From contig CBDCWI010000001.1 in the NCBI GenBank assembly GCA_965223325.1, forward strand, positions 1-64,000: a DNA stretch of 64,000 nucleotides, written 5' to 3'. Shown one piece after another: positions 687 through 49,073 of the stretch. The position numbers were made by a program, and so were the translations under genes. This DNA is from Candidatus Multivoradales bacterium (GTDB lineage Bacteria > Acidobacteriota > Thermoanaerobaculia > Multivoradales > Multivoraceae). Below the pieces are notes generated by a model. It was given only the letters and a program-made list of their open reading frames with translations, made no database searches and was not told the origin of the DNA. The first letter of the stretch is position 1. The number at the start of each line of letters is the position of its first letter.

Positions 687-696
687 GGCCCCAATC

Positions 697-12794: not shown

Positions 12795-12797
12795 TTG

Positions 12798-13148
12798 ATG
12801 CACATCAAAGCCGGCGAGAGCGTGCTCGCCGCCCTCGGAACCGCCGGCATCATCGGAGGCCTGGCAGTTGCGACGCTGCTACCGCGAAGCGGCGCCGCCG
12901 AGTGGAAGCGCCAGTCGAACGAGTCATGCGCAGAGTACGGACAGCGCGTCAACGCCGACAACTATGCCCTCTGGCGAGAGTTCTCGAGTGTGCGCAGCCC
13001 TCGGGGGCCCATGGTCCTGCGGAGGTACTGGGTAGAGCGCCAGCACGGGTGCCGTCCCGCTTTCCCGGCCTGGAAGGAGGCGCCGGCGGATAGTGGCTTG
13101 TTGTTCAGGGACGGGTTCGAGGCCGGCGACGTATCCCGGTGGTCCTAG
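12798..13148 (+). CDS. Small exported or anchored protein with C-terminal LFRDGFEAGDVSRWS motif
   Basis: N-terminal hydrophobic helix, 2 Cys, FxDGFE tail; GAGGGGG RBS. Confidence 0.7.
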   Translation: MHIKAGESVLAALGTAGIIGGLAVATLLPRSGAAEWKRQSNESCAEYGQRVNADNYALWREFSSVRSPRGPMVLRRYWVERQHGCRPAFPAWKEAPADSGLLFRDGFEAGDVSRWS

Positions 13149-13159
13149 AGGTTTGGGCA

Positions 13160-13233
13160 CAGCGGCCCGGGTCGGGTTTCCCTCCAACTACCCGTGCGAG
13201 CAGACTGCTCCGCCGGGTCGCTGACTTTTTCTT
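13160..13233 (+). terminator. Branched hairpin plus U-tract between convergent operons
   Basis: CAGCGGCCCGG...CCGGGTCGCTG stem with inner hairpins, followed by ACTTTTTCTT. Confidence 0.5.
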
Positions 13234-13293
13234 CCACCACCTCGAAAACCGCCGTGAATCTTCTCCCGATACCCTAGGGTAAACGGGATAAAT

Positions 13294-13665
13294 TCAGGGG
13301 CAGTTTTCGCACCCTGGAGGCGCCGGCGGTAGATCGGCCATGTCGAGGGCGCCGAGCTTCTGTTGTTCCTGGTAGACACGCCGGACAAGCTCCGTCACGG
13401 CGGAAATCTCCTCGCGGCGAATCCATTTCCAACGCCGGCGGCGCCACCAGCCGCCACGGGTTGGGAGCTCGTAGAGTTCGCCTACGACCCACGCGGCCCT
13501 CGAGGTTCCGGGCAGGTCGGTCATCCGCCTGGCGCGGAGCACCAGGTCCCACACCATCCACGAGATTCGGGCGTGACGTTTCTTGCCGCGTTGCGAGAGC
13601 ACGGCCGGCACGACCTCGGCAGCGATCCTGCCCAGGATCGTGCCGACCACTGCCCCGCTGGCCAC
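13294..13665 (-). CDS. Basic lysis-module protein (holin- or disruptin-like?)
   Basis: Last gene of the late operon after the endolysin; amphipathic N-terminus, WWRRRRWKW. Confidence 0.5.
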   Translation of the reverse strand: MASGAVVGTILGRIAAEVVPAVLSQRGKKRHARISWMVWDLVLRARRMTDLPGTSRAAWVVGELYELPTRGGWWRRRRWKWIRREEISAVTELVRRVYQEQQKLGALDMADLPPAPPGCENCP

Positions 13666-25363: not shown

Positions 25364-26098
25364 CTAGATGACGCCGATCGCAACCATCACGCCGAAACTG
25401 GGTGTCGTACCTGCCACCGTGATGTCCACATCCCAGAACTCGTCAGTGATCGGGCCATCGACCTCGATGAGCTCGCTTCCCGCCGCTGTGATCTGAGTGA
25501 ACGTTCCGCGAGTCGTCGGCGTACCCATGCCGGTCGCCGCAGCGCTGCGCACGATGATGTCCATCGTTGGGCTCGTGCCGGACGCGTCTGTGCAATGCAC
25601 GATCATCTTGAGCGTCGAGCCGTTGGGCACGCCGCCGGGGATGTTGATCTCGGTGCCCGTCGCGCTCGCCGTAAGGGCGAGGCTGCTGTATGCGCCGTAG
25701 CCCTGCACGATGCCTTCAATCGGCTTGAAGTTCGCGGACAGCGTCGCGATCTGACCTACTCGGGTCTGGATCGGATTGCCACTACGTCGCGCCGTCGCGA
25801 AGTACACGAGATCGCCGGCTTCGACCGGGCGCTCCCGCGAGAACGACACAAGGACATCATCCTCGCGGGTCCAAAGTGCGCGCTCGAGGTCGCCAGACAT
25901 TGCGAATCCGCTGACCGTGAACGTTGCGCTCTTGTTGCCAGGCAACGTGTCTTCGAAGCCGCCAGGGCTCTCGAAGTTCGAAGCGTCGATGTCCTGTTGC
26001 GACAGATCAATCGACACGTCGTTTGAGTAGGGTGCATAGTTGAACTCTTCGTAGATCACTGTGGCGTTTCGAACCACCACTCTTTTCTCGCCTGCCAT
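25364..26098 (-). CDS. Major tail tube protein
   Basis: VSIDLSQQDIDASNFES.GGFEDTLPG.KSATFTVSG; AGGAGG RBS; position before the chaperones. Confidence 0.85.
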   Translation of the reverse strand: MAGEKRVVVRNATVIYEEFNYAPYSNDVSIDLSQQDIDASNFESPGGFEDTLPGNKSATFTVSGFAMSGDLERALWTREDDVLVSFSRERPVEAGDLVYFATARRSGNPIQTRVGQIATLSANFKPIEGIVQGYGAYSSLALTASATGTEINIPGGVPNGSTLKMIVHCTDASGTSPTMDIIVRSAAATGMGTPTTRGTFTQITAAGSELIEVDGPITDEFWDVDITVAGTTPSFGVMVAIGVI

Positions 26099-26101: not shown

Positions 26102-26308
26102 CTAGACCTCCTGGTCGTCGGTTGGTGATGGCTCCGCGGCCGCGGGCCTTCGTGTTTTGAGGCCACTTGAGCGGCGCTCAGGTTTAGCTCCTGGGCGTTG
26201 CGCCACGCCAGCGGCTTCCCACGCGGCGGCGCGCTGGGCGTCCACCTCGTAGGTCTCGCCCGTCTTGTACTTGCCCTCTGTTCTCAACATCTCCATCTCG
26301 ACCAGCAT
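26102..26308 (-). CDS. Small hypothetical protein (DUF7210-like head/tail accessory)
   Basis: YKTGETYEVDAQRAAAWEAAGVA; GAGGAGG RBS. Confidence 0.6.
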   Translation of the reverse strand: MLVEMEMLRTEGKYKTGETYEVDAQRAAAWEAAGVAQRPGAKPERRSSGLKTRRPAAAEPSPTDDQEV

Positions 26309-29300
26309 CTAGTTGCCTCCTCGGGTTGTGACCTTTTCGCTGTTGGTGTCGAGCCCCAGCCCCTGCCAGCTCGACCAGTTGATTTCCGCGCGGCCGTCTG
26401 AGCCGCTCTGCCCCACGAACGCCTCCTCGCCGAGCAGCACGTACCGGTTGTCGTCGATCTTCGTGGGGTTCTTCGTTCCGTTGAACCAGTTGGCCAGCGT
26501 CGAATCGAGGTTCAGCGGGCAGCCGGACGTCGTCGTCGGGCTTACCTGCATCGACACCACGTATCCGCAAGACCAGCAACCGTCGTTATCGCCCTCAGAG
26601 ACGAAGATGTTGTTCTCGACCGTGACGTCGCGGGTGTAGTAGTTCGCCGGCGAAGTCCGGCAGTCGTTGCCGAGGCTCAGGCCGCTGTTGACCCCGGGTG
26701 AATCGACGATCGTGTTTTGAATCCATGAGTCTCGAACGATCGTGTCTTCGCTGTTCGCGACGGCGATCTGGGCGTCTTCGTTCCGCATCGCGATGACGCG
26801 CTCGATCGTGGCGGCAAACGCGATCTCGTGGCGGACGCCCTCCTGGTTGCCAGAGGCCCAGAGGTCGCGAAACACAATGCTCGAGCCAACGGCGTCGCCA
26901 ACGTCGATGTCAGTCCACCACCCGGGCCCGAGACAATCTTCGGCAGTACTGTTGGCGATCAGCAGGTTGTCGACGTTGCCCGTCGCAAACTTGGTGCAGC
27001 CGGCCTCCCAGACGTAGCTGTGCCCCTTGTCGCGGTTGACCCGCCTGATAGCAACGTTCTCGATCGTCAGGTCGTCGTTGTTGCCACCGATACCGAGCCG
27101 GCCGATGTCCTCGATGATCGAGTGCTGGACCGTCGAGCCGTCGCCGTCCATCATGATTCCGACGCCGCCGCTTTGGCCGAGGTACGAGTACTCGAAGATC
27201 GCGCCGGCGCCCATGTCGATCACGTTGTTCGTCTCGACCGGTGGTTCGGCGGACGCATTGAAGTATTTGACCGTGCAGTTTCGAACCGTGTGGGGGTTGG
27301 CCTCCGTGCTGTCCGAGAGGTCGAAAGCCTTCTCTTCGGACGTGGCTTCGATCACCAAATCCTGGTTGAGCTCGGGGTCGAAGTTCAGATAGATGCGATC
27401 GGCGGCGTAGTCGAAGTAGAACTCGTCGTCCTGGTCAAGGTTTGCTTTGCTGGTGACCGGAGTCAGGTGGACCCCGTCGAGATAGACCGCCTCCGACTCC
27501 TCGCAGTTCGTCCACCCGCTCTGGCATCCCTGGGTGTAGTCGGTCGAGTCCTGCGTTTGCCCGGTCACGTACCAGTCGCCCGTGTCAGACGTCCAGGCGA
27601 CGGTCGCCGGCGAAATGTCGTTGCTCCCGAGGATCAGAGTCGTGCTGTCCTCGCACACGATGTTTGTGGTTCCGGCGCCGGGGTCGATCACGCCGGCGGG
27701 CCGGCAGGTACCGCGGATCTCGTAATCGCCGCTGCTGGTGATCGTGACTGAGGGATCGCCGGACGCATCGCAATCGATCACAGTTGCACCGCCGGGGATG
27801 GTCGGCGAGTCGGTGGGCCCTCGATCATCGTCGTACTGAGCTGCCACAGCCGCCCGCAGATGACTCGGGTACATCGTGTCCCGCTCGAGACCGCCCCGCG
27901 AGGGATCGTCTCCGCGCTGCTTGTTGGCCCGATCGATCGCGCTCGTAAGGGCCGAGGTCCGCGCACCGAGAATGCAAGTGTCGTGGAGAGCTGGGCGCCA
28001 GTCATCGCCGGCGGTGTCCTCGAACACCGGTGTGCAGAGGTCGCTCCCCGTATCGCCAGACGCCGTCTCCCAAGTTGAAAAGGCTCCCGTCGAGTACTCC
28101 GTCGAGTTCCACCGCCAGTTTCCGGCGTCGTAGCTGTTGTCCTCGATCGTCCAGTTCGACCCGCCGGTGCGGTCGTCGATGTTGTCGCCGTTGTCGTAGA
28201 AGGCGTTTCCGCGAATCGTGACCTTCTGGAGCACGTGGGTCGCCGAACCCTCGTTCTCGACGTAGATGCCGTTGATGCACCCGACGAAGGTGTTGCCATC
28301 GAACACAAACTCTGCGTCGGCGGTGTAGGCCTCGGTGTTCTGGCCCACGTCCAAACGGACGCAGTTGCGTTGCGCCGAGTCCCCGTCGATCATCGTGCTG
28401 TTGCGAAGGGTGAAGTTCTCGATTCGCGAGTCGCCGTCACCGACGTTATCGATCGTGACGAAGATCACGTCTCCGAAACCGGTGTGGTCATCGTCCCCGT
28501 ACCACTCGAGACGATCAACGATGACCGGGCCGGTTATCTCGTCGACGTCACAGAAGGTGTTATCGGCACTCTCGACCACGAAGCTCCCGCACTGGTCGCA
28601 GTAGACGTTTGTCACCCAGACGTCCTGGATGCACTGGGCCGGGCTCCCGAAGTTGGGCATGTCGAGGGCGTGCCCGTCGCTCGTGCCTTCGATTCGGATG
28701 TCCCGGAACTCGACGTGGTCGACGCTGCCCCAGACGTCAAAAAGAACGTGGGTCGCGTCCCCGCCGCCGGCCGCGATGACGTCACGGTACGTGTAGTTGT
28801 CGAAGCGCCAGCGCGTGCGGCGGGTGAAGCCCGTACCGTCACACTCGCCGCGCATGGCATAGAAGAAGCTGTTTTCGGTGACCGCCTGGCCATCGACCAA
28901 GATGTTTCGAAACAGCAGATCGTCGCCGCTGTCTCCGTTCTGGCAGCCGAAGACGTTGAGCAGCTGAAAGGACTTGATGTCGTTGACCTCGATGTCGTGC
29001 AGGTACCACGAGTCGCGATCGCCGGAGGTCACGCCAGACGGGGACCAGATCGGGTCGGTGATGTCATCAAAGCGGATGTGCGCGATCTCGACTCGTGACA
29101 CACCGGTTTCCCACAGGAAGACCTCGTCGTCAGTCCCGTCGAAGATCGGCATGTCCTCGTGATAGTTGCCGTCGTTGTCGTCGTCCCAGGCAACGATCAA
29201 CGTCGGGTTCGTCGGAACCGCGACCGGAAAGGCTTCGTCGCCGGACTGGTCCCACCTGGTCCCGGCGTCGCCGCTCGGAATGTCATCAATCAGGTCGTCG

Positions 29301-29683
29301 CCAGTGCCGCCCGTGCCCTTGAGGCAGTAGGCGTCTTCGCCGGCTGCGAGGCCCGAGCGGTTGTCGATGGCGTATGCGAGTGTCGCGCACGGCGAGTCGG
29401 GTGTGCCGCAAGACCCGCTATCGGTGCCCGACGTCATGTCGACGTAGACCTCGGACTCCGTCGTGCTGTCGCCGTCCCAGTCGACCGCAACCATGCTCGA
29501 GCCCGAAGTCGAGTCGCAGACGTCGCAGTCCGAGGCTTCGCCGACAATGCCGTCGTCGTCCAGGTCGAGACCGCAGATCCGCGCCTCGTAGCCGCGGCCC
29601 CTGTGGTCGCCGAGCTCGGTGGCAACCAAATCGTTCACCCCAAAGGTGAACAGAACCAGGAGGACGCTAGAAAACCGCCGCAT
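26309..29683 (-). CDS. Exported parallel beta-helix (pectin-lyase-like) protein with two helix domains
   Basis: N-terminal MRRFSSVLLVLFTFGVNDLVA; DxDxDG motifs; CGTPDSPCATLAYA; PbH repeats; many Cys. Confidence 0.8.
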   Translation of the reverse strand: MRRFSSVLLVLFTFGVNDLVATELGDHRGRGYEARICGLDLDDDGIVGEASDCDVCDSTSGSSMVAVDWDGDSTTESEVYVDMTSGTDSGSCGTPDSPCATLAYAIDNRSGLAAGEDAYCLKGTGGTGDDLIDDIPSGDAGTRWDQSGDEAFPVAVPTNPTLIVAWDDDNDGNYHEDMPIFDGTDDEVFLWETGVSRVEIAHIRFDDITDPIWSPSGVTSGDRDSWYLHDIEVNDIKSFQLLNVFGCQNGDSGDDLLFRNILVDGQAVTENSFFYAMRGECDGTGFTRRTRWRFDNYTYRDVIAAGGGDATHVLFDVWGSVDHVEFRDIRIEGTSDGHALDMPNFGSPAQCIQDVWVTNVYCDQCGSFVVESADNTFCDVDEITGPVIVDRLEWYGDDDHTGFGDVIFVTIDNVGDGDSRIENFTLRNSTMIDGDSAQRNCVRLDVGQNTEAYTADAEFVFDGNTFVGCINGIYVENEGSATHVLQKVTIRGNAFYDNGDNIDDRTGGSNWTIEDNSYDAGNWRWNSTEYSTGAFSTWETASGDTGSDLCTPVFEDTAGDDWRPALHDTCILGARTSALTSAIDRANKQRGDDPSRGGLERDTMYPSHLRAAVAAQYDDDRGPTDSPTIPGGATVIDCDASGDPSVTITSSGDYEIRGTCRPAGVIDPGAGTTNIVCEDSTTLILGSNDISPATVAWTSDTGDWYVTGQTQDSTDYTQGCQSGWTNCEESEAVYLDGVHLTPVTSKANLDQDDEFYFDYAADRIYLNFDPELNQDLVIEATSEEKAFDLSDSTEANPHTVRNCTVKYFNASAEPPVETNNVIDMGAGAIFEYSYLGQSGGVGIMMDGDGSTVQHSIIEDIGRLGIGGNNDDLTIENVAIRRVNRDKGHSYVWEAGCTKFATGNVDNLLIANSTAEDCLGPGWWTDIDVGDAVGSSIVFRDLWASGNQEGVRHEIAFAATIERVIAMRNEDAQIAVANSEDTIVRDSWIQNTIVDSPGVNSGLSLGNDCRTSPANYYTRDVTVENNIFVSEGDNDGCWSCGYVVSMQVSPTTTSGCPLNLDSTLANWFNGTKNPTKIDDNRYVLLGEEAFVGQSGSDGRAEINWSSWQGLGLDTNSEKVTTRGGN

Positions 29684-30512
29684 CGCAGTCTCCTAGGTCG
29701 CCGGTGATCGATTCGTCATCGTAGAACCCACGGTCGAGGTAGACGCTGCCGCGACAAACACACAGCTCGCCCGTCGGGCCGCACGCCTGCATCTTGCGAA
29801 GCTCGGTGTCAGTCAGCGCCCCATTGGTCGAGATATCGATCCAGACCTCATCCATCTCGCCGTCGGTCGCGTTGCCCAGGCGAAGATCCTGGTTTCCCCC
29901 CACGATGTCGGCCGACGCCGGCGTGGAGGTATCCAGAGTCCCGTTGACAATCAGGTCGACAGTGCCGGCGCTGTCGTCCCACCGACCACAGATGGCCGCC
30001 CACGAGTCGCAAAGGTCGCCCGGGTTGTCGGTGTTGCGATAGACGGATGTGCCGTCATGGACCTCGAAGTCGACCGCATAGTTCGCGCAGAAGTTGGAGT
30101 ACCAGAAGTCCCAGCCTCCCGATCCGTTGCGGTTTTGGGCCAGGTAGCCACCGCTGCCGGTTGTGCCCTCCATCTGGTAGTAGGCGCAGACCACGACGTC
30201 CTCGCCACTCGCAGCGTCTACCTCGTCGCAGGTGGCATCGGTCGCAACCAGCCGATCAGTGGACGTATCAGGAAATGACGCGGCGTTGCCGAGAACGCCG
30301 GTTGCTGACGAGACTGTGCCCTCCTGCGTCAGGTCGCAATCCGTTCCCGCAGTCCCGGCGGTGAGGGCCCTGTTTCCGCTCGACTCATCGAGCGACCAGT
30401 ACGCGGTCATCGAGCCGGTCTCGTCAGGCGGTGACGACCGCCTGATCAGGTTGCCAGCGGCCACCGACTGTGCCGCAAAGGCAGCGACGAGTGCGACTAG
30501 AGCGATGCGCAT
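29667..30512 (-). CDS. Exported LamG/concanavalin-like protein
   Basis: Signal MRIALVALVAAFAAQSVAA; AYWSLDESSG..GVLGNAASF..DGEMDEVWI; 10 Cys. Confidence 0.8.
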   Translation of the reverse strand: MRIALVALVAAFAAQSVAAGNLIRRSSPPDETGSMTAYWSLDESSGNRALTAGTAGTDCDLTQEGTVSSATGVLGNAASFPDTSTDRLVATDATCDEVDAASGEDVVVCAYYQMEGTTGSGGYLAQNRNGSGGWDFWYSNFCANYAVDFEVHDGTSVYRNTDNPGDLCDSWAAICGRWDDSAGTVDLIVNGTLDTSTPASADIVGGNQDLRLGNATDGEMDEVWIDISTNGALTDTELRKMQACGPTGELCVCRGSVYLDRGFYDDESITGDLGDCDAAVF

Positions 30513-30515
30513 GAC

Positions 30516-32249
30516 TCAGTCCCTCGTCCAGCAGACGGTGATGATGTAGTCATCGGTGGTCGGGTCGGGCGTGTTGTCGACGTCCAAACGAAGCCCCTCG
30601 CCAGCAGTCAGGCCGCCGCCGGCGGTGATGGACTGAAACGTCGCGGCGGTGCCGCCCGTCGTGCAGGTCGGAACTGTGTGCGTCATCGCATTGCCACCGG
30701 TGTCCTCGAGACTCACCTGGCCGACGGTTGTGCCCGTGCCCTCATAGCGGCAGCCCACCTGCTCGACCGTCACCGCGTAGGGAAAGGGGCCAAGGATCAG
30801 AAGATCATCGTCGGCAGCCTGCATCGACTGAATCGTCGTGCTGTCGCAGGTCTCGTGCTCCTCGACGTCGTTGTTCGCGGCGTCGTAGTAGAGGACCCCA
30901 TTCGGAATCGCTTCGCCATCGAACTCGCTGCCGTCGCCGATCATGATCTGGTCATCGGCCGCGGTCACCGTGGCACCGGCGTCGATGAGGTCGGTCGTCG
31001 AGGCTGCCCCGATGTCTCCGCGGACCTCGGCCGAGGTGCGGTACTGGAACTGCGTGGTGTCGAGCGGATCAACCCGGACGTACTCACCGGCCAGCGGCGT
31101 ATCCGTCCCGTCGTCAAGCTCCGAGGTCCCAACGCTGTCCGCGCCGCCACCGCCACCCGTTTGGTCGAGGTACTCCTCGCCGGCGTCCTTGGTGCCGTCG
31201 CAGTCCTTGTCGGCGTATGGCCGGTCTGAGTCGATCGTGACGCAGGACGCAGAACCTACCGTCAGGCTCCCGAGCTGCACCCTCCCGGCCGTCGCGAGGT
31301 TCGCACTCGAGGCGACTGTGATGTCGTCTGGCACCTCACCGTCTGAGTCCGGCTGGTCGTCGTCCGTGCCGGTCTGGATTGCTGCCCCGTCGAGAGTGGT
31401 CCCGGCCGTCAGATTCCCGTCGACAGCGATCGTGATCGTGTCGGTTCCCGAGTTGCCCGTGATCGTGATGTCCTGGCCGGCTGCCCAGGTCAACGTATCT
31501 GTGGCAGAACTCGCAACAGGATCGGTTCCGCTGGGGGTGTCATGGGTCTCGAAGCTGTTGGCAGACCCTCCGCCGGTGTTGTCTGTCGCGCAGACGAACG
31601 AACTCCCGTTGTACTCCACGACCTCGCCGCTGGTGCACCCCGCTGTCGACATGTCCGAAAGGTCGTTCATGCCGTCGGTACCGGTCTGAATCGCGGCTCC
31701 GCCTAGGGTGGTTCCTCCGGTCAGATCTCCGTCGAACGCAATGGTGATCGAGTCGTTTGTCGAGTTACCTGTGATCGTGATGTCCTGCCCGGCGAGCCAC
31801 TGGAGGACGTCGGTCGCCGAATCTGCCACCGGATCGGTGCCGCTCGGCGTGTCCTGCGTCACGAACGAGTCAGACGAGCCACCACCCGACGCGTCGAGGT
31901 ACTCCTCGCCGGCGTCCTTGGTGCCGTCGCAGTCCTTGTCGGCGTACGCTCGGTCTGCGTCGTCGCAGATGCAAGTGGCAGAGCTCGAGGTCAGGCTCCC
32001 GATCTGGAGGCAGCCCGCGGTTTCGAGGTTCGACGAACTCGAGATCGTCAGGTTGTCGGGAACGTTCGAGTCGCTGATCAGCGCCAGGATCTGCGTGACG
32101 GTGAGCTTGCGCGTCGTACCACCCTGGTTGGAGGGCAGCTCATCGGAGCCAGAGGCAGATCCCGCCGCCGGCAGCTGGGAAATCCGCTGCGCGCCGGCCG
32201 GCAAGGCCGCAAAAAGCAGCGCGAACGCCGGAATCAGGATTCGTTTCAT
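30516..32249 (-). CDS. Exported fibre-like repeat protein
   Basis: GAGGA RBS; signal MKRILIPAFALLFAALPAGA, then QRISQLPAA; A-B-B-A internal repeats; 12 Cys. Confidence 0.8.
   Translation of the reverse strand: MKRILIPAFALLFAALPAGAQRISQLPAAGSASGSDELPSNQGGTTRKLTVTQILALISDSNVPDNLTISSSSNLETAGCLQIGSLTSSSATCICDDADRAYADKDCDGTKDAGEEYLDASGGGSSDSFVTQDTPSGTDPVADSATDVLQWLAGQDITITGNSTNDSITIAFDGDLTGGTTLGGAAIQTGTDGMNDLSDMSTAGCTSGEVVEYNGSSFVCATDNTGGGSANSFETHDTPSGTDPVASSATDTLTWAAGQDITITGNSGTDTITIAVDGNLTAGTTLDGAAIQTGTDDDQPDSDGEVPDDITVASSANLATAGRVQLGSLTVGSASCVTIDSDRPYADKDCDGTKDAGEEYLDQTGGGGGADSVGTSELDDGTDTPLAGEYVRVDPLDTTQFQYRTSAEVRGDIGAASTTDLIDAGATVTAADDQIMIGDGSEFDGEAIPNGVLYYDAANNDVEEHETCDSTTIQSMQAADDDLLILGPFPYAVTVEQVGCRYEGTGTTVGQVSLEDTGGNAMTHTVPTCTTGGTAATFQSITAGGGLTAGEGLRLDVDNTPDPTTDDYIITVCWTRD
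31164..31946. repeat. 54-bp exact direct repeat (31164-31217 and 31893-31946) in the fibre gene
   Basis: Both copies encode YADKDCDGTKDAGEEYLD with identical codons. Confidence 0.85.
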
Positions 32250-32260: not shown

Positions 32261-32698
32261 TCATGCGGCAACCAGGGCGGGGTCAAGAGCGTCAGTCATG
32301 CGCTCGAATGGGATACGGAGCTCGCGCCGATCGAACTCCTCGTCTTGGATCTGTTGGCCGGGAAGGGGAACCGAAAAGTCCATTTCCCCGTCTGGCTTTG
32401 CCGAGTGAAAGGCCAGGACGAGAGCGTCAAAGAGCTCGCGGGCCCGGCCATCTCGAGCGCCGTGCTCGACATGCACGATCGCCGACACCTCGCCCTCGAG
32501 TCGGACACACTCGAACGTGAGATGCTCCGAAAACAGGTACTCGACGTCCCACGTCACGTAGACCGCCGGCGCGTCGATCGATCCGTTCGGAGTCGGCGGC
32601 GAAAACTTCTGGTTCGGCGCGAACACAACGAGGGCTCCGGGTGGAGCCCAGGTTGAGAAAACCTCGCCGATAGCCTGGCGCTCTTCTACGTAGTTCAT
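32261..32698 (-). CDS. Tail terminator/completion protein
   Basis: PNQKFSPP..YV..G.V..IV.V..G.G..A.EL.D.L..F pattern; neck position. Confidence 0.7.
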   Translation of the reverse strand: MNYVEERQAIGEVFSTWAPPGALVVFAPNQKFSPPTPNGSIDAPAVYVTWDVEYLFSEHLTFECVRLEGEVSAIVHVEHGARDGRARELFDALVLAFHSAKPDGEMDFSVPLPGQQIQDEEFDRRELRIPFERMTDALDPALVAA

Positions 32699-33072: not shown

Positions 33073-33644
33073 ATCGCACGCTCGCTTCCGAACTCGACAC
33101 GCCATGCGACCGGCGTTTCCGCTCGTCCTGACAGTCGCCGGAATCGCACAACCATCTCGGTTGCACCGTCTGCCTCGAGGAGCAGGTCACCAACCCGAGG
33201 GCGGTGGTCCTCGCTATATAGCCAGATCTCCCGCTGGCCAAACTCTTCGGAGGTGCCGACCGCAAGGCCTCGCCGGCTCGCGGGCTCGAACGCGAAGAAC
33301 TCGAGAACCGCCGGAGAAACGGTTACAGGGTCCGACTCCGCCACCGAGGCCGCAAGGCCCGTCGTCAGATCTATAGTGATCTCGTGGTCGGTGGCCGTCG
33401 CGTCGCTCGAGACGAGATAGTCCTGGCCGCCCACCGTCACCACCAGGCCGGCGGGCACGGAACCCGACAGCCCCGTCCCGCGGACCAGGATCTGAGTGGC
33501 GCCCGCCAGTGCCGGTGCTGCCACTTCAAGGGCTGCGGCGGTGCCCGAAACGTCATCGGCCAGCGAGTGGTTGCGCTGGAGCGTCACGGTGCCGTCTTGA
33601 CCGTTGTAGCGGATGCGGCGGCCCACCATGTCTCGCACCCTCAT
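33069..33644 (-). CDS. Putative head closure (stopper) protein with inserted domain
   Basis: Position after the connector; GGAGG RBS; PRVGDLL C-terminus. Confidence 0.55.
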   Translation of the reverse strand: MRVRDMVGRRIRYNGQDGTVTLQRNHSLADDVSGTAAALEVAAPALAGATQILVRGTGLSGSVPAGLVVTVGGQDYLVSSDATATDHEITIDLTTGLAASVAESDPVTVSPAVLEFFAFEPASRRGLAVGTSEEFGQREIWLYSEDHRPRVGDLLLEADGATEMVVRFRRLSGRAETPVAWRVEFGSERAI

Positions 33645-34897
33645 ACCGCGTACCTCCGCAGGGAATCGAGAAGGCGCATGGCATCCGGCGGAATCAGGCC
33701 GAGGTCCGCGCCATAGCGCTCCTCGAAGCCGTCGGCTTTCTGCGACACGAGCCCGAGCGCCCGGCTCTCGTCGCGAATCGCAGCCATCGTCATGTAGGCC
33801 GCGGTAAGAACCTGGCGCGGCAGGATCTGAGCCTCACGCGTAACCAGCGTCGCCGTGTTGTCGGTGACAGAAGCACCTGATTCGGTCGGCCAGACAGGCT
33901 CGTTCGCGCCGAGCACGCCGGCACTGGTTACTTCGAGCAGATACCGCGTTTGTGTGGCCTTGACCCACTGCCCCACCGCTACGCTTTCGCCAGCACTCCA
34001 CTTGACGACCGCCGAGGGCAGCACGTAGCCCGCGGTGTACTCGACCAGGATGCGTGGGACGCCCTCAGAGTTCCAACCGGAGCCACGCGGCCAACAACTG
34101 TCGCGGTAGAGCATGGCGTACTCGTCAGAATCGACCTGCCAATCAAAGACCTCTTCGCCGGCAATCCAGACCCGAATCGTCCCGAGCTCAATCGGATGCC
34201 GCGACAACAGAAGTGTTGACTTGCCGTGTCCGTCCGGAACCTCTCGGTAGCCCTGACGAAGTAGGCAGCCGGCCTCGTCCTCGATCGCGCTGCTCACCTC
34301 GGCGATGTAGTCGAGAATCACCGCGTCGTCATCAGTCATGCTCAATCGCGCCTTGACCGCATCGAGCGTGAGAAGGTCTGTGCTACTCGCAGGGATGGCC
34401 ACCTCGAGCTGGACCGTGGGCGCTGTGATCGTCGTCGCGGGAGAGGTGGAGTCCCGAACCGGGATGATCACGCTCTCTTCGAGAATTTGCGGTGTTGGCG
34501 CGAGGTCCGACGTGATGCGAACCGTTACCGTGTAGTCGACACCGTCCTCGCCACCGGCGACGAAGAATCGGACAGCCTTCGCACCTTCGAACAGCTCGTC
34601 GGAAACAAGGGTCAGGCCAGAGGTTTCGACGGTCGCGCTTGCGATGTCCTCACCGGCCGAGTCGTCGAGCTCGAACCGGTCGATCTGCCGCCAGTTCGCG
34701 GCGTCGTCACCGATCACCGACCCGCTCGAGCTGTGGCCGAGAACACACTCGTAGTAGAGGTCCCCGACAGGGTCTCGCCGGACGTCCCCCACGACAAACG
34801 ATCCAGCGGCCCAGTCCTGGGCGCCAAACCGAACGATGTACCACTTGGTCTCGCTCGGGTCCTTGGGGTCTAGACAAAGAGCGCTCACGCTGCTCAC
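33641..34897 (-). CDS. Head-tail connector (gp6-like) fused to an N-terminal Ig-like adaptor domain
   Basis: LLTLDAVKARL..DDA.I..I...S.AIE, VEYTAGY, LLDSLRR; N-terminal KDPSE..GG.DG.DY.VTV.ITS. Confidence 0.75.
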   Translation of the reverse strand: MSSVSALCLDPKDPSETKWYIVRFGAQDWAAGSFVVGDVRRDPVGDLYYECVLGHSSSGSVIGDDAANWRQIDRFELDDSAGEDIASATVETSGLTLVSDELFEGAKAVRFFVAGGEDGVDYTVTVRITSDLAPTPQILEESVIIPVRDSTSPATTITAPTVQLEVAIPASSTDLLTLDAVKARLSMTDDDAVILDYIAEVSSAIEDEAGCLLRQGYREVPDGHGKSTLLLSRHPIELGTIRVWIAGEEVFDWQVDSDEYAMLYRDSCWPRGSGWNSEGVPRILVEYTAGYVLPSAVVKWSAGESVAVGQWVKATQTRYLLEVTSAGVLGANEPVWPTESGASVTDNTATLVTREAQILPRQVLTAAYMTMAAIRDESRALGLVSQKADGFEERYGADLGLIPPDAMRLLDSLRRYAV

Positions 34898-35688: not shown

Positions 35689-36069
35689 TTACTTCGCCCC
35701 CTTGGACTTCTTCTTCTTGGCCTTCTTCTTGACCTTCTTCTCGACCATCGCGGGCAAGATGGGCACCGACTTCAGGATTTCTTCGTCGTGCTCATCCCAA
35801 ACGCTCTTCTCGCGGAGGATGATCGTGGTCGGACTGAGTGGGTCGATGTCCCAGGACTTCGCGAACTCAGGCCAGCCAGCGAAGCCGGGCGTCGCCTCGT
35901 AGCGATCGACAAGCTCCTTTGGCACACCATCTGCCGTGCAACCTCCGGCTGCCTCGTTCTGGAGCCGAAACATCCAGTATCGAGTCGTCCGAAACTCGCG
36001 GCGGGCGTCGGGCGCAAGCAACCGCCGGCGCTCCTCGATCTCGACCTTCGTGTAGCGAAGTATCGGCAT
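35689..36069 (-). CDS. Hypothetical protein with Lys-rich tail
   Basis: TGATG coupling to the upstream gene. Confidence 0.6.
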   Translation of the reverse strand: MPILRYTKVEIEERRRLLAPDARREFRTTRYWMFRLQNEAAGGCTADGVPKELVDRYEATPGFAGWPEFAKSWDIDPLSPTTIILREKSVWDEHDEEILKSVPILPAMVEKKVKKKAKKKKSKGAK

Positions 36070-37688
36070 CAGACCGGGTTCTGGTAGACGAGCTCGTCGC
36101 CGGCGTTGATCTGGAATGTCAACCCTGTCGCGCGAGTGATGGTGAACGAGGCGACGACCCACTTGGAGTCACTGAGCCCCTGGGCGACGACCGTGACCGG
36201 CACGTCCGTCGCGGCGCTACCGCCACCCCGCTGCACGTTGCCGTCGTAGTCGTAGGTGAACGGAATCGAGGTCGCCGTCACCTGTCCTTCGATTGCTGCG
36301 GCGGCGTTGTCGTTGACGACGATTGCGTTGTCGGTGTCGAAGTCCGATCCGGCGTTCGACCCCGCGTCATCGTTGGTGAAGTACATCCGGTAGAGCGTGT
36401 CGGCGTTGGTCTCGCTGACGAGGTTGCTCGAGAAGACCAGGTTGCCGGCAGCAACGAACGGGAACACGCGCTTTGTCGACGTCGACGGCGTTCCTTCGGA
36501 GTCCAAGCCGCCACTGTCAACGGTGATGTCGAAGAACTCGATCCGGTTCTGGTCGTTGACGTCGAAATCGTCGACGTACACACCGGCGCGCGTCTGCAGG
36601 GTCTCGCCCAGAAAGTCGAGAAACGGGACTGCAATGTTGCCGTTGATGGTGCCCACGCCGTCTTGGTTTGGGCTGCCCAGGGTGTCGTCGTTGATGTCCG
36701 TCGTCCGACGCAGTTCACGACGCTCGAACTCGTAGATCTTTTCGGCTGAGCCGGAGTTGCCATCGATAATCCGGTTGAACGCGTACCACTCGGTACCGAT
36801 CTGTCGCTCGCCGGCGTAGGACTCCCAGTCCGTCACGCCGGTGTCGTCGGAGGTACCCGTGCCGCTCGAGGTGCCGCCGGCCGGCGTGAACCACCAGGTG
36901 CCGTTAGACGACCCCGACGCCTGGCGCCCAGCATCGAGCACTACCGCGCCGGCCGGATAGACCGTCGAGTTCGCCCAGGTGGTAAACCCTGAGCCGTCGA
37001 GGTAGTTGATCGTCATCCCCGTATAGGGGGTGTTCGCGTCGATGTTCGCGTCCGTCTCGACGATCTTCGGGTCGGTCGAGTTCGACAGCGGCAGACGATA
37101 GGCCTGGTAGGTCAGGACCGAGAGATCCTGGTCAACAAGCAAGTTGCCCTCGCTGATCGTCTTCCCTTGCTCGCGAAGATAGACCTTCAGAAAGTCTCGG
37201 TTGTCCGTGGCCGAACCATCGAAGATCTCAATGGCTTCGTTGAGCTCACCCGTCTTGTCAAAGTCGGTGGTCGACGCCGAGAATCCCGAAACCTGCTGGT
37301 AGTAGGCCTGGTCCGTCGACGAGTTGTCGAAGCCACCGAGAGAGATGATGACTGCGTACTCGGCGCCGGAGGTGTCCTCGCGCCAGCCACCATCTCGAAG
37401 CAGATCGCGGGTCTGGGCGTCCGCAGGCTCCCAGTCGTTGACGACGTTGAACTTCGCCTCGAAGATCGGGTCGATCGGGAAACGGTGCTTGTTCAGCGCC
37501 GTGTCGGTCAGCCACTCCTCCTTGCAGAACGAATAGAACGCCTGAAACGCAACGCCCGACGTTTGTCCGGGCGCGTTGTCGTCCAGGTTGCCGGCAACGA
37601 GCAGCTGGAACGTCTTGGGCGACCCGGTCGTGGTGAACACGACTTCGGTCGCTTGGTTGAGCTGATCTGGGTCGACGATCTTGGCCAT
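36069..37688 (-). CDS. Virion structural protein (539 aa, acidic, beta-rich)
   Basis: AAGGA RBS; head operon; W-rich CBM-like insert; ends YQNPV. Confidence 0.75.
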   Translation of the reverse strand: MAKIVDPDQLNQATEVVFTTTGSPKTFQLLVAGNLDDNAPGQTSGVAFQAFYSFCKEEWLTDTALNKHRFPIDPIFEAKFNVVNDWEPADAQTRDLLRDGGWREDTSGAEYAVIISLGGFDNSSTDQAYYQQVSGFSASTTDFDKTGELNEAIEIFDGSATDNRDFLKVYLREQGKTISEGNLLVDQDLSVLTYQAYRLPLSNSTDPKIVETDANIDANTPYTGMTINYLDGSGFTTWANSTVYPAGAVVLDAGRQASGSSNGTWWFTPAGGTSSGTGTSDDTGVTDWESYAGERQIGTEWYAFNRIIDGNSGSAEKIYEFERRELRRTTDINDDTLGSPNQDGVGTINGNIAVPFLDFLGETLQTRAGVYVDDFDVNDQNRIEFFDITVDSGGLDSEGTPSTSTKRVFPFVAAGNLVFSSNLVSETNADTLYRMYFTNDDAGSNAGSDFDTDNAIVVNDNAAAAIEGQVTATSIPFTYDYDGNVQRGGGSAATDVPVTVVAQGLSDSKWVVASFTITRATGLTFQINAGDELVYQNPV

Positions 37689-37709: not shown

Positions 37710-39266
37710 TTAGGTTGGGTTCTCAAAAACGAGGTCGTCGGCTTGGGTTATCGGGAGCTCGCGATCGGCTGCCGTCAAAGTGTCGGCGTACTCGACGGCG
37801 CGCTTGTCCAGGTCGAGGATCATCACGTCGACCGCGGTGTCGGTCGTGTGGTTGTAGGTGTAGGTGTAGACCCCCGCCGTGGGGTTGCCCTGGGAAAGAA
37901 CCGTTCGGTCGCTGGTCTTGGCGATCGTGATCTGGCTGCCCGCGTCGAGCCCGGTCAACTTGTAGGTCGTGGGGTTGTTGACCGTGGTCGTCGACGTGGT
38001 GATGTTCTCGACCGTCGGCGTCGCACCACCGCCCAGGACGTCAATCGTCACCGCGCCCCCGCTGTCGTTGCGGACGTCTTTGGTGTTGCCGCTGTAGCTG
38101 TGCCCCGTGAACTCGTCCGTTCCGCCGGTTGGCACCGTGTCGATGAGGATGCCTTTAGCGTTGTTGATCCAACTGCAGTCCTCAACGTCGGCCGAATCGC
38201 TCCAAAGGACCGCCCCGGTTGTCGACGTTGACGAGATGAAGAAGGACTCGCGAAAAGACGCGCTGCCGGGATCGATCTGGCCACAACTGTCGAACGTCGT
38301 GCTCAAGATCTCGCAGGCAGAGTCTCCGAAGGTCGGATCGCCGGCGCCCTTGACGAGGCAGCCATACAACTCAAAGGAATCGAGGTCGGTGTCGCTGGCG
38401 TCAAAGACGTATGCGAGACCGGCCGAGAGGAAAATGGCCCCGTCGACGCCGACAGATCCGACTTTTGTCCCGAAGGTGATGTCCGTGGCGTTGATGACCG
38501 TCCGGTCGGCCTTCAGGCCGATCTTCGACGCAGTCAGCGCACTTACAACCGACGTACCGTTGTGGTATTGCGGGTCTTCGAAGACGAGAACACAACCCTC
38601 GTCACTAACGTCCGTCGCGGAGGTACCGCCAAGGATGATGAGCGCCTTGCTGTAGGTGATTCCGCCCTCGTCCCGAAAGATCCCCCATCCGTTCGTGTCA
38701 TCTGCGGCAATCAGGTCAGCACAGAGCGACGTGCTCGTTCCGGTGACCACCACGTCATCCCAGCGATGAATCGCGTCGACGTAGGTGTTCGGGTCGCCGC
38801 CGCCTACACTCGCGGTCATGTCGAAGATCACCCCGAAGTAGCGGGCCGTCGTCATCGAGAGCCCCGTACCTCCGGTCGCCGACGCGGTCTTACTCACGTC
38901 GATCACGAACTTCACCCAGCCGCCACCGTAGGTGTCGTTTCCTGCGACATACCACTCGGCATAGTTCGCAGTTCCGCTCGCGGACGCGATGCGAATCCGA
39001 ATTCCTCCGTTCGCGAGGGTGTCCAGGGAGCCCACGCCGCCGGTCACGTTCACCCACACGCCGACCATCTGGCCGGTGATGTCGATACCCGAGCTGTTGT
39101 CAAACAGGTACCCCTTGACGCCGTTGCTCACCTTGCGAGCGCGAGAGTTGGAGCCCTGTCGGACAACGTCCGTGTTGAACGACGAACCACCACCGCCACC
39201 GACGTCGACCCAGGTGCCGGTTTCGGCGGTGGTGATGGTGGTTACTCCTGTGACTGTGATTGCCAC
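37710..39266 (-). CDS. Virion structural protein with jelly-roll and beta-helix segments
   Basis: T/S/G-rich; YGGGWVKFVID; beta-helix repeats; ends VFENPT. Confidence 0.75.
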   Translation of the reverse strand: MAITVTGVTTITTAETGTWVDVGGGGGSSFNTDVVRQGSNSRARKVSNGVKGYLFDNSSGIDITGQMVGVWVNVTGGVGSLDTLANGGIRIRIASASGTANYAEWYVAGNDTYGGGWVKFVIDVSKTASATGGTGLSMTTARYFGVIFDMTASVGGGDPNTYVDAIHRWDDVVVTGTSTSLCADLIAADDTNGWGIFRDEGGITYSKALIILGGTSATDVSDEGCVLVFEDPQYHNGTSVVSALTASKIGLKADRTVINATDITFGTKVGSVGVDGAIFLSAGLAYVFDASDTDLDSFELYGCLVKGAGDPTFGDSACEILSTTFDSCGQIDPGSASFRESFFISSTSTTGAVLWSDSADVEDCSWINNAKGILIDTVPTGGTDEFTGHSYSGNTKDVRNDSGGAVTIDVLGGGATPTVENITTSTTTVNNPTTYKLTGLDAGSQITIAKTSDRTVLSQGNPTAGVYTYTYNHTTDTAVDVMILDLDKRAVEYADTLTAADRELPITQADDLVFENPT

Positions 39267-39962: not shown

Positions 39963-41333
39963 TTATGCCGCGATCTTGAGGCGAGCGAAGGGCTCTTCGA
40001 GGATCGGCATGCCGTCGTTCTTCCCGCGGAAGAGGAGGGCGACCTGGTTGATTTCGGCGTAGAGCTCGGAGAGGCGCAGGACCTCCATGTCGAGCGACTC
40101 GGCGACCCAGTAGTAGGAGAAGTCGCCAAGAAGGCCGGTGTAGTTGCCGGCAGTGCTGAAGTCGCTCGGGAAACGCTCGTGCACATGCACGGGCAGACCG
40201 AGAAGCCGGTCCGGCTCGCCTACTCGAACGTCGCGCTGCCAGATGTATTGACCGTCGCCGTCCTTGATCTTCGAGATCTCCTTCTCGCCGTCGAGCGGGA
40301 AGAACCACCTAGCGTTGTTCCAGTAGCGGAAAACGCTGTACTTGGCATTCTTGAGCTCGTCGAAGGAGTAGGCGGCGCCGGCGGCCGAACCGCACGTGAC
40401 GTCGCGTGCCGTGGAAATCCCGTCAGTCGACGGAGTGAACAAGCCCAGGGGCTCCTGGCTGCCGTTGCCGGCGATCCACTCGTCTTCCTGCTTCTCGGCG
40501 ACGTCTCGGGTGACCTCGTCGATCGCAATGCTTTCGACGGGCATCACCGCGCGGCGAATGAGGTCGCGAGAGAGAAAAATCTCAGCAGTCCAAAAGTGCG
40601 GCGTGAGCGCCTTCAGACCGAACTTGAGACTTGTGTCCTTCGTGGGCGGGGTGATCTCGCCGCCGCGCGCGTACGTCGAAGCCTTGGCGGTGCGCCGGCG
40701 GACGCCGAGGGAATCGGCACCACGAACACGGAAGGTGCGGAAGAAGGACCGCAGCGGCAAGGCCTCGTCCAACGCCTTGAGGAGTCCACCGGTGAACTCC
40801 ATGGGCGTGTTGAGGTAGCCGCCGTCGACAGCCGAGTCTGAGACCAGGTCGGCGCGGACGCGGCCAACCAGTTCCCCGTCAGCACCAGTCGCGCCATGCT
40901 TCAAAAGCATTTCCTTCCAGAACGCGCGCCTGAACGAAGGCGTGGCCCGCAGCTGCTCGCGAACGCTCCAGGTGGCCTCGCCCAGCTCGACGTCGCCAAA
41001 CTGTTCACGCAGGAGCGTGAGGCCCTGTTCTTCAAGAGTGGCCTCTACGGCGGTAGCGGGGTCAACCAGCTCCGAGAGACGGCGTGTTCCGGCCGACTCT
41101 CGTCGGGCCTGGGCAGCGAGATCGATCTCGTTGGCTTCCTCAGCCTCGAGCTGCGCAAGCTTCTCGGCCTGGTCAATTCGCTTTTTGAGGTTCGTCGCGT
41201 CGTCGAACGCCTTGCTGTAGTTGGCGTCTTCCTCGCTGGTCATCGGCCGGCCTTCGGCCTCGGCGCGCTCGAGGATGGCGCGCGCGTCATGGACCGCCTT
41301 CGCACGGAGCTCGCGCATTTCTTGGAGGGTCAT
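39963..41333 (-). CDS. Major capsid protein (HK97 fold with delta domain)
   Basis: Coiled-coil N-terminus, DGGYL.TP, GNGS.EPLGL, KIKDGDGQYIW..LLGLPV, LLGDFS.Y. Confidence 0.95.
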   Translation of the reverse strand: MTLQEMRELRAKAVHDARAILERAEAEGRPMTSEEDANYSKAFDDATNLKKRIDQAEKLAQLEAEEANEIDLAAQARRESAGTRRLSELVDPATAVEATLEEQGLTLLREQFGDVELGEATWSVREQLRATPSFRRAFWKEMLLKHGATGADGELVGRVRADLVSDSAVDGGYLNTPMEFTGGLLKALDEALPLRSFFRTFRVRGADSLGVRRRTAKASTYARGGEITPPTKDTSLKFGLKALTPHFWTAEIFLSRDLIRRAVMPVESIAIDEVTRDVAEKQEDEWIAGNGSQEPLGLFTPSTDGISTARDVTCGSAAGAAYSFDELKNAKYSVFRYWNNARWFFPLDGEKEISKIKDGDGQYIWQRDVRVGEPDRLLGLPVHVHERFPSDFSTAGNYTGLLGDFSYYWVAESLDMEVLRLSELYAEINQVALLFRGKNDGMPILEEPFARLKIAA

Positions 41334-41562
41334 CGTCAAAGCCCCTTTCCACTGGTTCGGTATGTACCGGTGGGTCAGGGATTTGAAGATCAGAAACGAC
41401 AAAGCGCCGCCCACCGATCGAATTGCTTCGATCCGGTGAGGCGGCGCCTATCGACGGATGCGGCTTGCCTACACCCCGTCAGCGCTGGACTGCTGAGCCT
41501 TCGGGCTCGACTCCTACGCGGAGCACAGCGCGCTGCGGTTCGCTGTTAAATCAATCTACGAA

Positions 41563-46644: not shown

Positions 46645-46718
46645 CTCAATTTCGCGCATGCACACTCGCGGCGGTCGTGTCCGCAGAGGTCGCGTCAGCT
46701 CCAGAGATTCGAACCCCC
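46645..46718 (-). other. Putative cos packaging site
   Basis: GGGGGTTCGAATCTCT...GACCGCCGCGAG...GCGCGAAATT just upstream of terS, like HK97/P27-type cos regions; exact cut site unknown. Confidence 0.6.
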
Positions 46719-47395: not shown

Positions 47396-47405
47396 GGCCC
47401 CAATC

Positions 47406-48819: not shown

Positions 48820-49073
48820 CGTTTTTATCGTCCTTCGAGCTGCGGAATCGTGCTCGTAATGCTAAGGTCTCGACTCATCCAGGATATGTCTTCTGCGCAT
48901 TTCTTCCTATCTCTCTGCTGCTTGCTTGTTCCGGTCCGAAAACCCCAAACTACTCAGATTTCTCGAGGCACGGCACATCATGGCGGTAAGAGCGAAGACC
49001 TGGAAGGAGGTGGCCGGACTGGTCACTGCCCTGAGCAAGCTACAAGCTTTTGAGGGCAACGACGGAAAGGCGA

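Follow-up and report, generated by a model that had tools for sequence, protein, structure and literature searches.

The 64,000-nucleotide window analysed here is the start of contig C1 in the two-contig genome (6.69 Mb, 64% GC) of a Candidatus Multivoradales bacterium. It holds a siphovirus prophage whose late tail operon contains three adjacent genes – A, B and C – encoding a fibre-like protein, a lectin-like protein and a beta-helix protein, each with a signal-like N-terminus and each rich in cysteine. The genes, two regions of A and the immediate flanks are listed below in the order of transcription.

32261..32698, minus strand: tail terminator, upstream flank of the cassette (phrog_179, E 5.4e-6)
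30516..32249, minus strand: gene A, 577 amino acids (aa), fibre-like, 12 Cys
32025..32189, minus strand: residues 21-75 of A, the fibre N-terminal motif with which the predicted mature protein begins
30519..30842, minus strand: tip domain of A, residues 470-577, with 3 Cys and with Cys468 just before it (alignments A1 and A4)
29667..30512, minus strand: gene B, 281 aa, LamG/ConA-like lectin fold, 10 Cys
26309..29683, minus strand: gene C, 1124 aa, predicted two-module right-handed beta-helix, 28 Cys
26102..26308, minus strand: 68-aa open reading frame (ORF) between C and the major tail protein gene, starting directly after the stop codon of C and carrying a coding signal in GC content at third codon positions (GC3)
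25364..26098, minus strand: major tail protein, downstream flank (phrog_9522, E 4.5e-26)

An initial annotation of this DNA had described three tightly coupled genes between the tail terminator and the major tail protein. In coordinates, order and coupling it was right: from the terminator to the major tail protein the junctions measure 11, 3, -17, 0 and 3 nt, and a GGAG-like Shine-Dalgarno sequence lies ahead of each of the five starts. What it had overlooked is the 68-aa ORF, which is part of the basic tail module and not of the cassette; a 69-aa ORF stands at the equivalent place in a related prophage (genome G108) that is without A, B and C. Promoter-like and terminator-like sites occur in the cassette region at chance frequency (1 against 1.2 and 5 against 5.4, respectively, in shuffled sequence), and with intergenic gaps of -17 to 11 nt no separate promoter or terminator – the mark of a moron – was found for the three genes. 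With no space left for signals of its own, the cassette should be co-transcribed and co-translated with the tail genes, and its late co-expression is well supported by inference. GC3 is 0.82-0.84 in A and C, compared with 0.73-0.79 in the flanking tail genes.

Evidence that the three products leave the cytoplasm comes firstly from their N-termini. We used a heuristic with three criteria – a net positive charge ahead of the core, a window of 10 uncharged residues with a mean hydropathy of at least 1.6, and small residues at -3 and -1 – by which A, B and C are positive and the other 30 of the 33 phage ORFs negative, in keeping with the Sec-type starts that had been read from these same sequences at the outset. 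Three adjacent positives among 33 ORFs would arise by chance with a probability of 31/5456 = 0.006, and on this ground chance clustering was rejected. In A (residues 1-20; 32190..32249, minus strand) MKR is followed by ILIPAFALLFAALP and the site AGA/Q, in B (residues 1-19; 30456-30512, minus strand) MR by IALVALVAAFAA and VAA/G, and in C (residues 1-21; 29621-29683, minus strand) MRR by FSSVLLVLFTFGV and the weaker site LVA/T; the predicted mature N-termini are QRISQ, GNLIR and TELGD. In the AlphaFold2 models the N-terminus is helical in both B (residues 2-20) and C (residues 2-21). A lipoprotein reading of the three proteins is ruled out by the lack of Cys at +1, and no sorting signals are visible in their C-termini. 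For comparison, a laxer form of the signal test was positive for 110 of 502 host ORFs (~22%) in a 1-Mb sample.

A second line of evidence is cysteine content. Our recount gave 12, 10 and 28 residues, matching the earlier figures of 12, 10 and about 28; all three numbers are even, they come to 50 in total, and they amount to 2.1-3.6% of each protein as against a median of 0.42% in signal-positive host ORFs. Two proteins of the same phage had been offered as Cys-poor contrasts, a 1385-aa LamG protein and a 539-aa 'head protein'. Their counts (2 and 1) hold, but the 539-aa ORF is not the head protein: it resembles Syn5 gene 53, and the major capsid protein is encoded at 39963-41414. The DxDxDG motifs reported in two of the proteins are likewise present, twice in A (as DKDCDG) and twice in C; no Pfam model matched these regions, which are candidate calcium-binding loops of the thrombospondin-type-3-like kind. 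Signals and cysteines also go together in the wider families: median Cys content is 1.45% with a signal and 0.28% without a leader in the A family (one-sided Mann-Whitney p 2.6e-4), and 1.42% and 0.61% in the B family (p 0.0035), in tests whose relatives are not independent and some of whose start codons are surely wrong. The host is a diderm (three Omp85 hits above the cut-off) and has eight DsbA-family hits above cut-offs.

Further evidence comes from a second allele. In C2:1-50264, on the other contig, the first 3.7 kb are the same host flank at 98.6% identity; another copy of the prophage follows, with ~94.5% identity across the structural genes, and it may either be a genuine second locus or come from a second strain caught in the assembly. 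Identity between the copies is mosaic, from 99.9% in the terminase, portal and protease genes to 77% (nucleotide) in gene B. A, B and C are intact in the second copy, in the same order and at the same operon position, and they start with the signal-like sequences MKRIITIAVLAGTLALPAYA/Q, MRLALVALTIVLAAQSVAA/G and MRLSSSALLILFTLGVNGFAA/A. The cleavage sites there are AYA/Q, VAA/G and FAA/A: residues differ and the three-part form of the signal (n, h and c regions) is kept. Every cysteine is kept as well (12/12, 10/10 and 28/28), even in B, where protein identity is 78% (95% in A, 97% in C).

The ratio of nonsynonymous to synonymous divergence (dN/dS) between the alleles is 0.14 for A, 0.16 for B and 0.05 for C, beside 0.065 for the major tail protein. 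Within A, the signal peptide has 10 amino-acid changes in 20 codons, residues 21-75 have 10 synonymous and 0 amino-acid changes in 55 codons, and the 166 codons of the tip region have 19 synonymous changes and a single amino-acid change. Drift in a signal whose form is kept, just ahead of a frozen mature N-terminus, is what one would expect of a working, cleaved signal peptide. Gene B (29667-30512, compared with C2:29063-29905) is a divergence hot spot, with a synonymous divergence (dS) of 0.95 as against ~0.3 in the flanking genes; the tail terminator and parts of the tape measure also diverge more than average. A dS so far above that of the flanks points to allelic replacement, which is common for specificity determinants.

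Taken together, these data make it very probable that A, B and C are exported by Sec and fold oxidatively in the periplasm. The proposal that these late proteins are exported and oxidatively folded is thus well supported by inference – from conserved signals, from cysteines and from a diderm host with DsbA hits. The premise from which that proposal started, that disulfides need the periplasm, was too strong: the accessible part of PMC13576161 describes virions with disulfides and without signal peptides.

Modules and relatives of A, B and C

Protein A is modular, comprising an N-terminal motif, repeat units, Cys/DKDCDG modules and a tip domain, and its 81 homologues share single modules with it. 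Residues 22-73 of A align ungapped to residues 5-56 of gp53 from the Roseobacter podophage CRP-4 with 46% identity (24/52; tblastn E 6e-5 in 2.3 Gb of phage records, BLASTP 2e-9), a leaderless protein annotated as 'putative fiber protein'; a weaker match is the N-terminus of gene 83 of the Erwinia phage phiEt88 ('putative tail fiber protein'). A scan of IMG/VR with the motif gave 42 loci with 15 distinct N-termini. In all 15 distinct viral-contig proteins the motif begins at residues 4-7, and all are leaderless with 0-3 Cys. In A the motif, K-I-S-x-L-P-A-A, starts at residue 22, after the signal, and would be N-terminal only after cleavage. Given the place of the motif in the 15 leaderless relatives, the Sec signal of A has been set exactly before what is usually the N-terminus of a cytoplasmic fibre.

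The repeat units of A (residues 120-300) are common to leaderless, Cys-poor tail-fibre-like proteins and to signal-bearing, Cys-rich proteins, and the signal test was positive in 24 of 80 A relatives; a phrog_677 fibre-connector repeat is also found in A (E 3e-6). Two Cys/DKDCDG modules of ~50 residues recur elsewhere at 71-79% identity, in the proteins P0024, P0029 and P0030. The tip domain – the last ~100 residues – is strongly conserved and has conserved cysteines. A tblastn search with whole A gave no match to it in 50,697 deposited phage records, and a profile search of the PDB returned no relative, with chance antibody matches only (E 0.5). Pfam recognises no domain in A at E<=0.01, and hence no S74; the host genome holds no relative of A except the second allele, which was also the only match in a word-indexed protein search with residues 21-110. 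Whole-protein scans of IMG/VR with A and with C gave no match, PDB sequence searches with A, B and C likewise none, and NCBIfam nothing for any of the three beyond a chance match. Judged by its sequence, then, A is a chimera of a signal peptide, the N-terminal motif of leaderless fibres and a tip domain seen on exported proteins only.

That tip domain recurs at 11 IMG/VR loci (GC 38-65%) and on six contigs of metagenome-assembled genomes (MAGs; 16-44 kb, several phyla). Where the N-terminus is intact, tip-domain ORFs are signal-like in 14 cases out of 14. Ten of these are viral ORFs with an intact 5' end and a classical signal, nine of them distinct (L036 and L037 encode the same protein; the ORF of L035, cut by the contig end, was left out of the count). 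The other four are from MAGs, the remaining two MAG ORFs being split or decayed. L042 has the tip on its own, as a 186-aa ORF that follows a signal-bearing ORF of 931 aa, and L046 looks like a broken copy of L045. One MAG locus (L047:5235-8414), an extreme example, encodes a signal-bearing tip-domain protein of 1059 aa with 52 Cys, followed by two more signal-bearing ORFs. The tip-domain gene stands after head genes (L029, L030, L031), after the tape measure (L036), beside the terminase (L039) or after genes for baseplate, collar fibre and fibre chaperone (L033). The ORF directly downstream is signal-like in seven of the eight loci where a downstream gene is present, and in the eighth it is the next but one; at L029 and L030 this downstream ORF, of 269 aa, matches LamG-type phrog families, repeating the fibre-then-LamG order of A and B. 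Across nine tip-domain loci 34 of 147 ORFs are signal-like, with contiguous runs of two to five around the tip-domain gene. L039 also has a reverse transcriptase gene (11011-13404; phrog_1423, E 4e-128) beside a 'tail protein', which looks like a diversity-generating retroelement close to signal-bearing genes.

Protein B had been called a LamG protein. By family and by fold this is borne out, though B itself falls short of the Pfam LamG threshold: its only Pfam signal is Pentaxin, at 16.4 bits against a cut-off of 25. A phmmer search of 1.84 billion representatives found 383 relatives at E<=1e-3, and Laminin_G_3 (PF13385) was found in 52 of 58 aligned relatives. The AlphaFold2 model (predicted local distance difference test, pLDDT, 90.8) is a helix at residues 2-20 followed by a beta sandwich, and at E<=1e-3 Foldseek matched it to at least 399 entries in the PDB and at least 500 in BFVD, every one of them jelly-roll or LamG-like. 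Among these are viral LamG proteins by the hundred, a tailspike from a cyanopodophage, a GH43 arabinanase's carbohydrate-binding domain and the lectin-like subdomain found in clostridial toxin binding domains; as modelled, the fold is generically sugar-binding and nothing in it is toxin-specific. In leaderless members of the B family the domain begins at the start of the protein and there are 0-2 Cys, whereas signal-bearing members often have 12-20. With the 1385-aa LamG protein of the phage B has only the generic LamG motif in common (E 0.005), and is therefore not a recent copy of it. An internal start at Met35, which would give a leaderless LamG protein, is without a clear Shine-Dalgarno sequence.

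The description of C as a double beta-helix stands for one of its halves. The C-terminal module (residues 830-985; 26729-27196) passes Pfam Beta_helix (PF13229, E 6.6e-8, 32.8 bits against a cut-off of 25.9), whereas the N-terminal module, at 17.3 bits, stays below threshold and the model is poor (pLDDT 46, with residues 577-1124 below 50). Foldseek matches of this model are weak (best E 4.8e-4 at a root-mean-square deviation of ~10 Å): alginate epimerases and lyases, rhamnogalacturonan lyase and tailspikes, all right-handed beta-helices. The N-terminal module is ~30% identical over ~570 residues to a cellular family; relatives of the module occur in 20 of 200 other genomes of the order and in 15 of 24 genomes of one family, often in several copies; none was found among 33 genomes sampled from the host's own family. 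Nine of 12 examined relatives have a signal or a lipoprotein-like start followed by RGYEARACGFD, as in mature C; of the other three, one runs off the end of its contig and another carries a lipobox to which the signal test was blind. Some cellular relatives carry LamG, F5/8-C or DUF5123 tails. The host genome itself has four paralogues of C at 30-37% identity, and paralogues of the C-terminal module match Beta_helix and NosD; a word-indexed protein search with C returned the second allele only. On this evidence C is a phage-borne member of a cellular family of exported proteins that are probably carbohydrate-active.

The prophage and its relatives

The wider setting of the cassette is given by the following features.

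9636-56344: prophage, 46,709 bp (46.7 kb), siphovirus
8433-9542: integrase gene
56299-56375: tRNA-Arg(CCT) gene, with the right end of the prophage inside it
39963-41414: major capsid protein (PF05065, E 7e-37)
36069-37688 and 37710-39266: genes for two acidic proteins without leaders (539 and 518 aa), between the capsid and adaptor genes
33641..34897, minus strand: head-tail adaptor (phrog_442, E 1.6e-18, residues 163-299)

Positions 1-9635 of the window are an exact repeat of the last 9.6 kb of the prophage (46710-56344), and because the two copies diverge inside tRNA-Arg(CCT) we place the integration at this gene. The prophage is assembled as ~1.2 tandem or circular copies, which may reflect excising or replicating phage in the sequenced culture. 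At the other end of the window a repeat (63297-64000) with at least 12 further copies on both contigs, at 95-100% identity, is probably an insertion sequence.

The prophage has a full set of head, tail and lysis genes. Its late operon, on the minus strand, begins with the small terminase, large terminase, portal, S49 protease and major capsid protein, followed by five genes without a clear name, those for the 518-aa and 539-aa proteins included. Then come the head-tail adaptor (418 aa), a 191-aa protein, the Neck1/tail-completion protein, the tail terminator and A, B and C. After C stand the 68-aa ORF, the major tail protein, the tail chaperone, the tape measure and the 1385-aa protein with four LamG domains; the operon ends with a 503-aa protein, a membrane protein and an amidase. 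With the 'structural protein' of Syn5 gene 53 the 539-aa protein shares 41% identity, and it has further matches in S-TIP28 and a Maribacter phage; Syn5 gp53 may be a 'horn' protein.

The major tail protein has no match in deposited phage records, and its relatives occur in only four of 299 other genomes of the order. The prophage of G108 is syntenic in terminase, portal, protease, capsid, adaptor, terminator, major tail protein, tape measure and large LamG protein, with ~200 nt between the terminator and the major tail protein; in a second genome, G107, Neck1 and the major tail protein are ~690 nt apart. The related prophages also lack the block of 518-aa and 539-aa genes. Their adaptors differ too: those of G107 and G108 match the adaptor of this phage only from residue 164 onward. 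The extra 163 N-terminal residues of the latter contain the Gp77 'fiber-tail adaptor' domain (PF23148, residues 81-132, 30.3 bits against a cut-off of 27), an odd thing to find in a siphovirus adaptor given that it is named from the podophage GP4. The relatives are without both, and this suggests that the extra fibre-like genes and the fibre-adaptor domain at the neck were gained together. As a lead only, the Gp77-like domain is a candidate docking platform for accessory fibres.

Where the exported proteins would act

A critical issue is what becomes of the three proteins once they are exported. The reading that we favour, at a probability of about 0.4, is that at least A docks on the virion after the membrane has been opened at the lysis stage. 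A-B-C would be an accessory cassette of the late tail operon, made together with the tail proteins. Its products would pass through the Sec translocon into the periplasm and be trimmed by signal peptidase I; host Dsb enzymes would pair the 12, 10 and 28 cysteines, and the DxDxDG loops of A and C would probably load calcium. A would be a phage fibre that after cleavage begins as cytoplasmic fibres do and ends in the exported-only tip, B a LamG-type lectin, and C a two-module beta-helix of the carbohydrate-active kind. As particles are built in the cytoplasm, the exported proteins could meet them only once the holin opens the inner membrane. At that point A, at least, would attach through its N-terminal motif as an accessory fibre, and B and C would work with it on glycans of the envelope or matrix.

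The order of events at lysis allows for such an encounter. Canonical holins open very large holes in the inner membrane, and the outer membrane is the last to go, broken by spanins, so that for a short period particles and periplasmic proteins would be in one compartment at high concentration. That fibres are able to join finished particles is known from in-vitro complementation in T4. For A the docking idea gains support from a predicted mature N-terminus that is at once the motif of leaderless fibres and under strict purifying selection; more broadly, the frozen N-terminus of A fits docking, the allele turnover of B fits a role in specificity, and the family of C fits a glycan enzyme. Complex prediction with residues 21-140 of A and the adaptor, the tail terminator or the major tail protein gave no answer (score 0.00).

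A bolder version would have tailed phages possess a second, extracytoplasmic assembly line – Sec export, Dsb and calcium, with docking between holin opening and outer-membrane rupture – in which A, B and C form one appendage and the tip domain marks the same route in 17 other phage-like contigs. This we regard as rather unlikely on the evidence in hand.

Several observations weigh against docking. The n/h/c test for signals is a crude heuristic. The three related prophages examined (G107, G108 and G014) have no match to A, B or C; the cassette is evidently dispensable for a working particle of this type. Its position varies among phage operons, as would that of a mobile accessory. The N-terminal motif of A is missing after the signals of the other tip-domain proteins, and no conserved neighbour of motif-bearing or tip-bearing fibres was found that this phage has in common with them. 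The phage also has leaderless candidates for host recognition in the 1385-aa LamG protein, the 503-aa protein and the 518-aa and 539-aa proteins, and for B and C there are numerous exported relatives, cellular or free-standing, that do without a virion. Finally, Cys richness alone does not demand the periplasm, given the disulfide-linked, signal-less virions in the accessible part of PMC13576161.

Many of these points would be expected if the proteins were exported and never bound to a virion, being freed at lysis as adhesin, lectin and glycan enzyme. Like soluble depolymerases or T5 Llp, they might then loosen a capsule or exopolysaccharide matrix, or mask or destroy receptors on debris and so spare the progeny. 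The cassette's absence from related prophages and its varying sites in other phages are in keeping with this. So is the fact that C belongs to a multi-copy family of cellular proteins, exported or lipoproteins, certain members of which are fused to LamG, F5/8-C or DUF5123 carbohydrate modules, and so are the weak fold matches of C to tailspikes, rhamnogalacturonan lyase and the epimerases and lyases of alginate. Free-standing, signal-bearing relatives of B that are similar to it in size number in the hundreds, and the divergence of B between alleles, the highest of the three (dS 0.95), is what a specificity determinant would show. For B and C the evidence indeed points as much to a free-acting exported lectin and glycan enzyme as to virion parts. 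For the cassette as a whole we consider free action a serious possibility that falls short of even odds: A keeps the motif of leaderless virion fibres under strict purifying selection, all three genes are translationally embedded between two tail genes, and Sec reaches only the periplasm of a diderm, so that action outside would have to wait for lysis.

Expression in the lysogen is harder to reconcile with the data. A, B and C could be lysogenic-conversion morons with a promoter hidden in upstream coding sequence, serving to change the host surface, to exclude superinfecting phages or to supply the host with nutrients through polysaccharide breakdown. Precedents for exported morons close to tail genes exist in lambda (lom and bor) and T5 (llp), and it is consistent with such a role that the block is accessory and missing from relatives, that C has paralogues in the host and that A and C have a GC3 somewhat higher than the tail genes on either side. 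Yet the genes leave no intergenic space, every start is coupled to the gene ahead of it, promoter-like and terminator-like sites are not in excess, the operon position is the same in both alleles and A is made of phage-fibre modules; on balance a moron is improbable. Least probable of all is that the hydrophobic N-termini are not cleaved signals and that the proteins, cytoplasmic or membrane-anchored, assemble in the usual way with their cysteines oxidised after release: the signal test is heuristic, the LVA/T site of C is weaker than the other two, and disulfide-linked virion proteins without signals exist (PMC13576161; phages Milano and Pam3 are named in the literature as well), but a positive n-region, an uncharged core of at least 10 residues and small residues at -1 and -3 are present in all three proteins and kept in the second allele, the fibre motif of A starts right after the predicted cleavage site, signal and Cys content go together in the wider families, and lipoboxes stand at the same place in cellular relatives of C.

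Docking of A, if true, would be a new assembly route for tailed phages, whose particles, fibres included, are in the textbook view built wholly in the cytoplasm. It would redefine what counts as a structural gene, for signal-bearing receptor-binding proteins are at present filtered out as 'non-structural' in host-range prediction; fibre production for phage engineering would need periplasmic expression with Dsb; and there would be a new view of what the last seconds before lysis serve. On a more modest reading there is a recurrent and recognisable module – a signal, a fibre and a Cys-bearing tip, followed by further exported proteins – on contigs whose GC ranges from 38% to 65%. The window offers a clean test case: a complete prophage, two natural alleles, and a predicted mature fibre end equal to a known leaderless end.

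Likeness to known systems

The closest relatives of A by its N-terminus are the leaderless K-I-S-x-L-P-A-A fibres (CRP-4 gp53, phiEt88 gene 83 and the 15 IMG/VR proteins), which have the same ~50-residue motif with fibre-type repeats downstream. To these A adds a 20-residue Sec signal, 12 Cys where they have 0-3, and a tip for which the search of 50,697 phage records with whole A gave no match. By position it recalls neck and collar fibres. T4 fibritin (wac) is encoded beside the neck genes, and in the present phage too a fibre gene lies next to neck and terminator genes; the podophage GP4 gp77 adaptor has its likeness in the Gp77-like domain of the head-tail adaptor. Neck and collar fibres, however, are leaderless and assembled in the cytoplasm, whereas A bears a signal.

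Exported accessory proteins of phages are represented by lambda Lom and Bor, T5 Llp and Cor, which carry signals, are encoded near tail genes and are dispensable for assembly. They are small outer-membrane proteins or lipoproteins, typically expressed from a promoter of their own, in the lysogen or early; A, B and C, in contrast, are three large proteins – fibre, lectin and beta-helix – coupled inside a late operon. The cellular beta-helix family resembles C in its signal or lipobox, its RGY-x-x-R-x-C-G-F-D start and its many cysteines. Its members are chromosomal, multi-copy and 650-1000 aa long, whereas C lies in a prophage and adds a second beta-helix module.

Signal-bearing, phage-fibre-like trimers that reach the cell surface have been described in Bdellovibrio bacteriovorus as mosaic adhesive trimer (MAT) fibres (Caulton et al. 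2024, PMC10769870). As far as the accessible part of that paper goes, and comparing by description rather than by direct sequence comparison, they resemble A in having a signal peptide and swappable tips, in folding after export and in acting outside the cytoplasm. According to the same part of the paper, MAT fibres are encoded in the chromosome of a predator, which displays them on its own surface, with a beta-rich domain, conserved and ~130 aa long, after the signal and in many cases an S74 chaperone-protease; A lies in a phage tail operon and is, by Pfam, without S74.

Disulfide-linked virions provide a further parallel. The accessible part of PMC13576161 reports a siphovirus tail-tube protein, gp39, that is disulfide-cross-linked and without a signal peptide, names the Agrobacterium phage Milano among disulfide-linked virions, and suggests that phages likely rely on host enzymes such as DsbA or on spontaneous oxidation. 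There, as presumed for A, B and C, cysteines stabilise extracellular parts; those virions, so far as that source describes them, have few Cys per subunit and no signal and are oxidised during or after release, in contrast to the 2-3.6% Cys and Sec signals found here. We found no description of Sec-exported tailed-phage fibres in the full-text literature, a search whose coverage excludes most subscription journals, nor is there one in the accessible parts of PMC3556154, PMC6102473, PMC5384007, PMC13266070 and PMC5723332. We accordingly file the A-B-C cassette with two known kinds, the fibres of phages and their exported accessory proteins.

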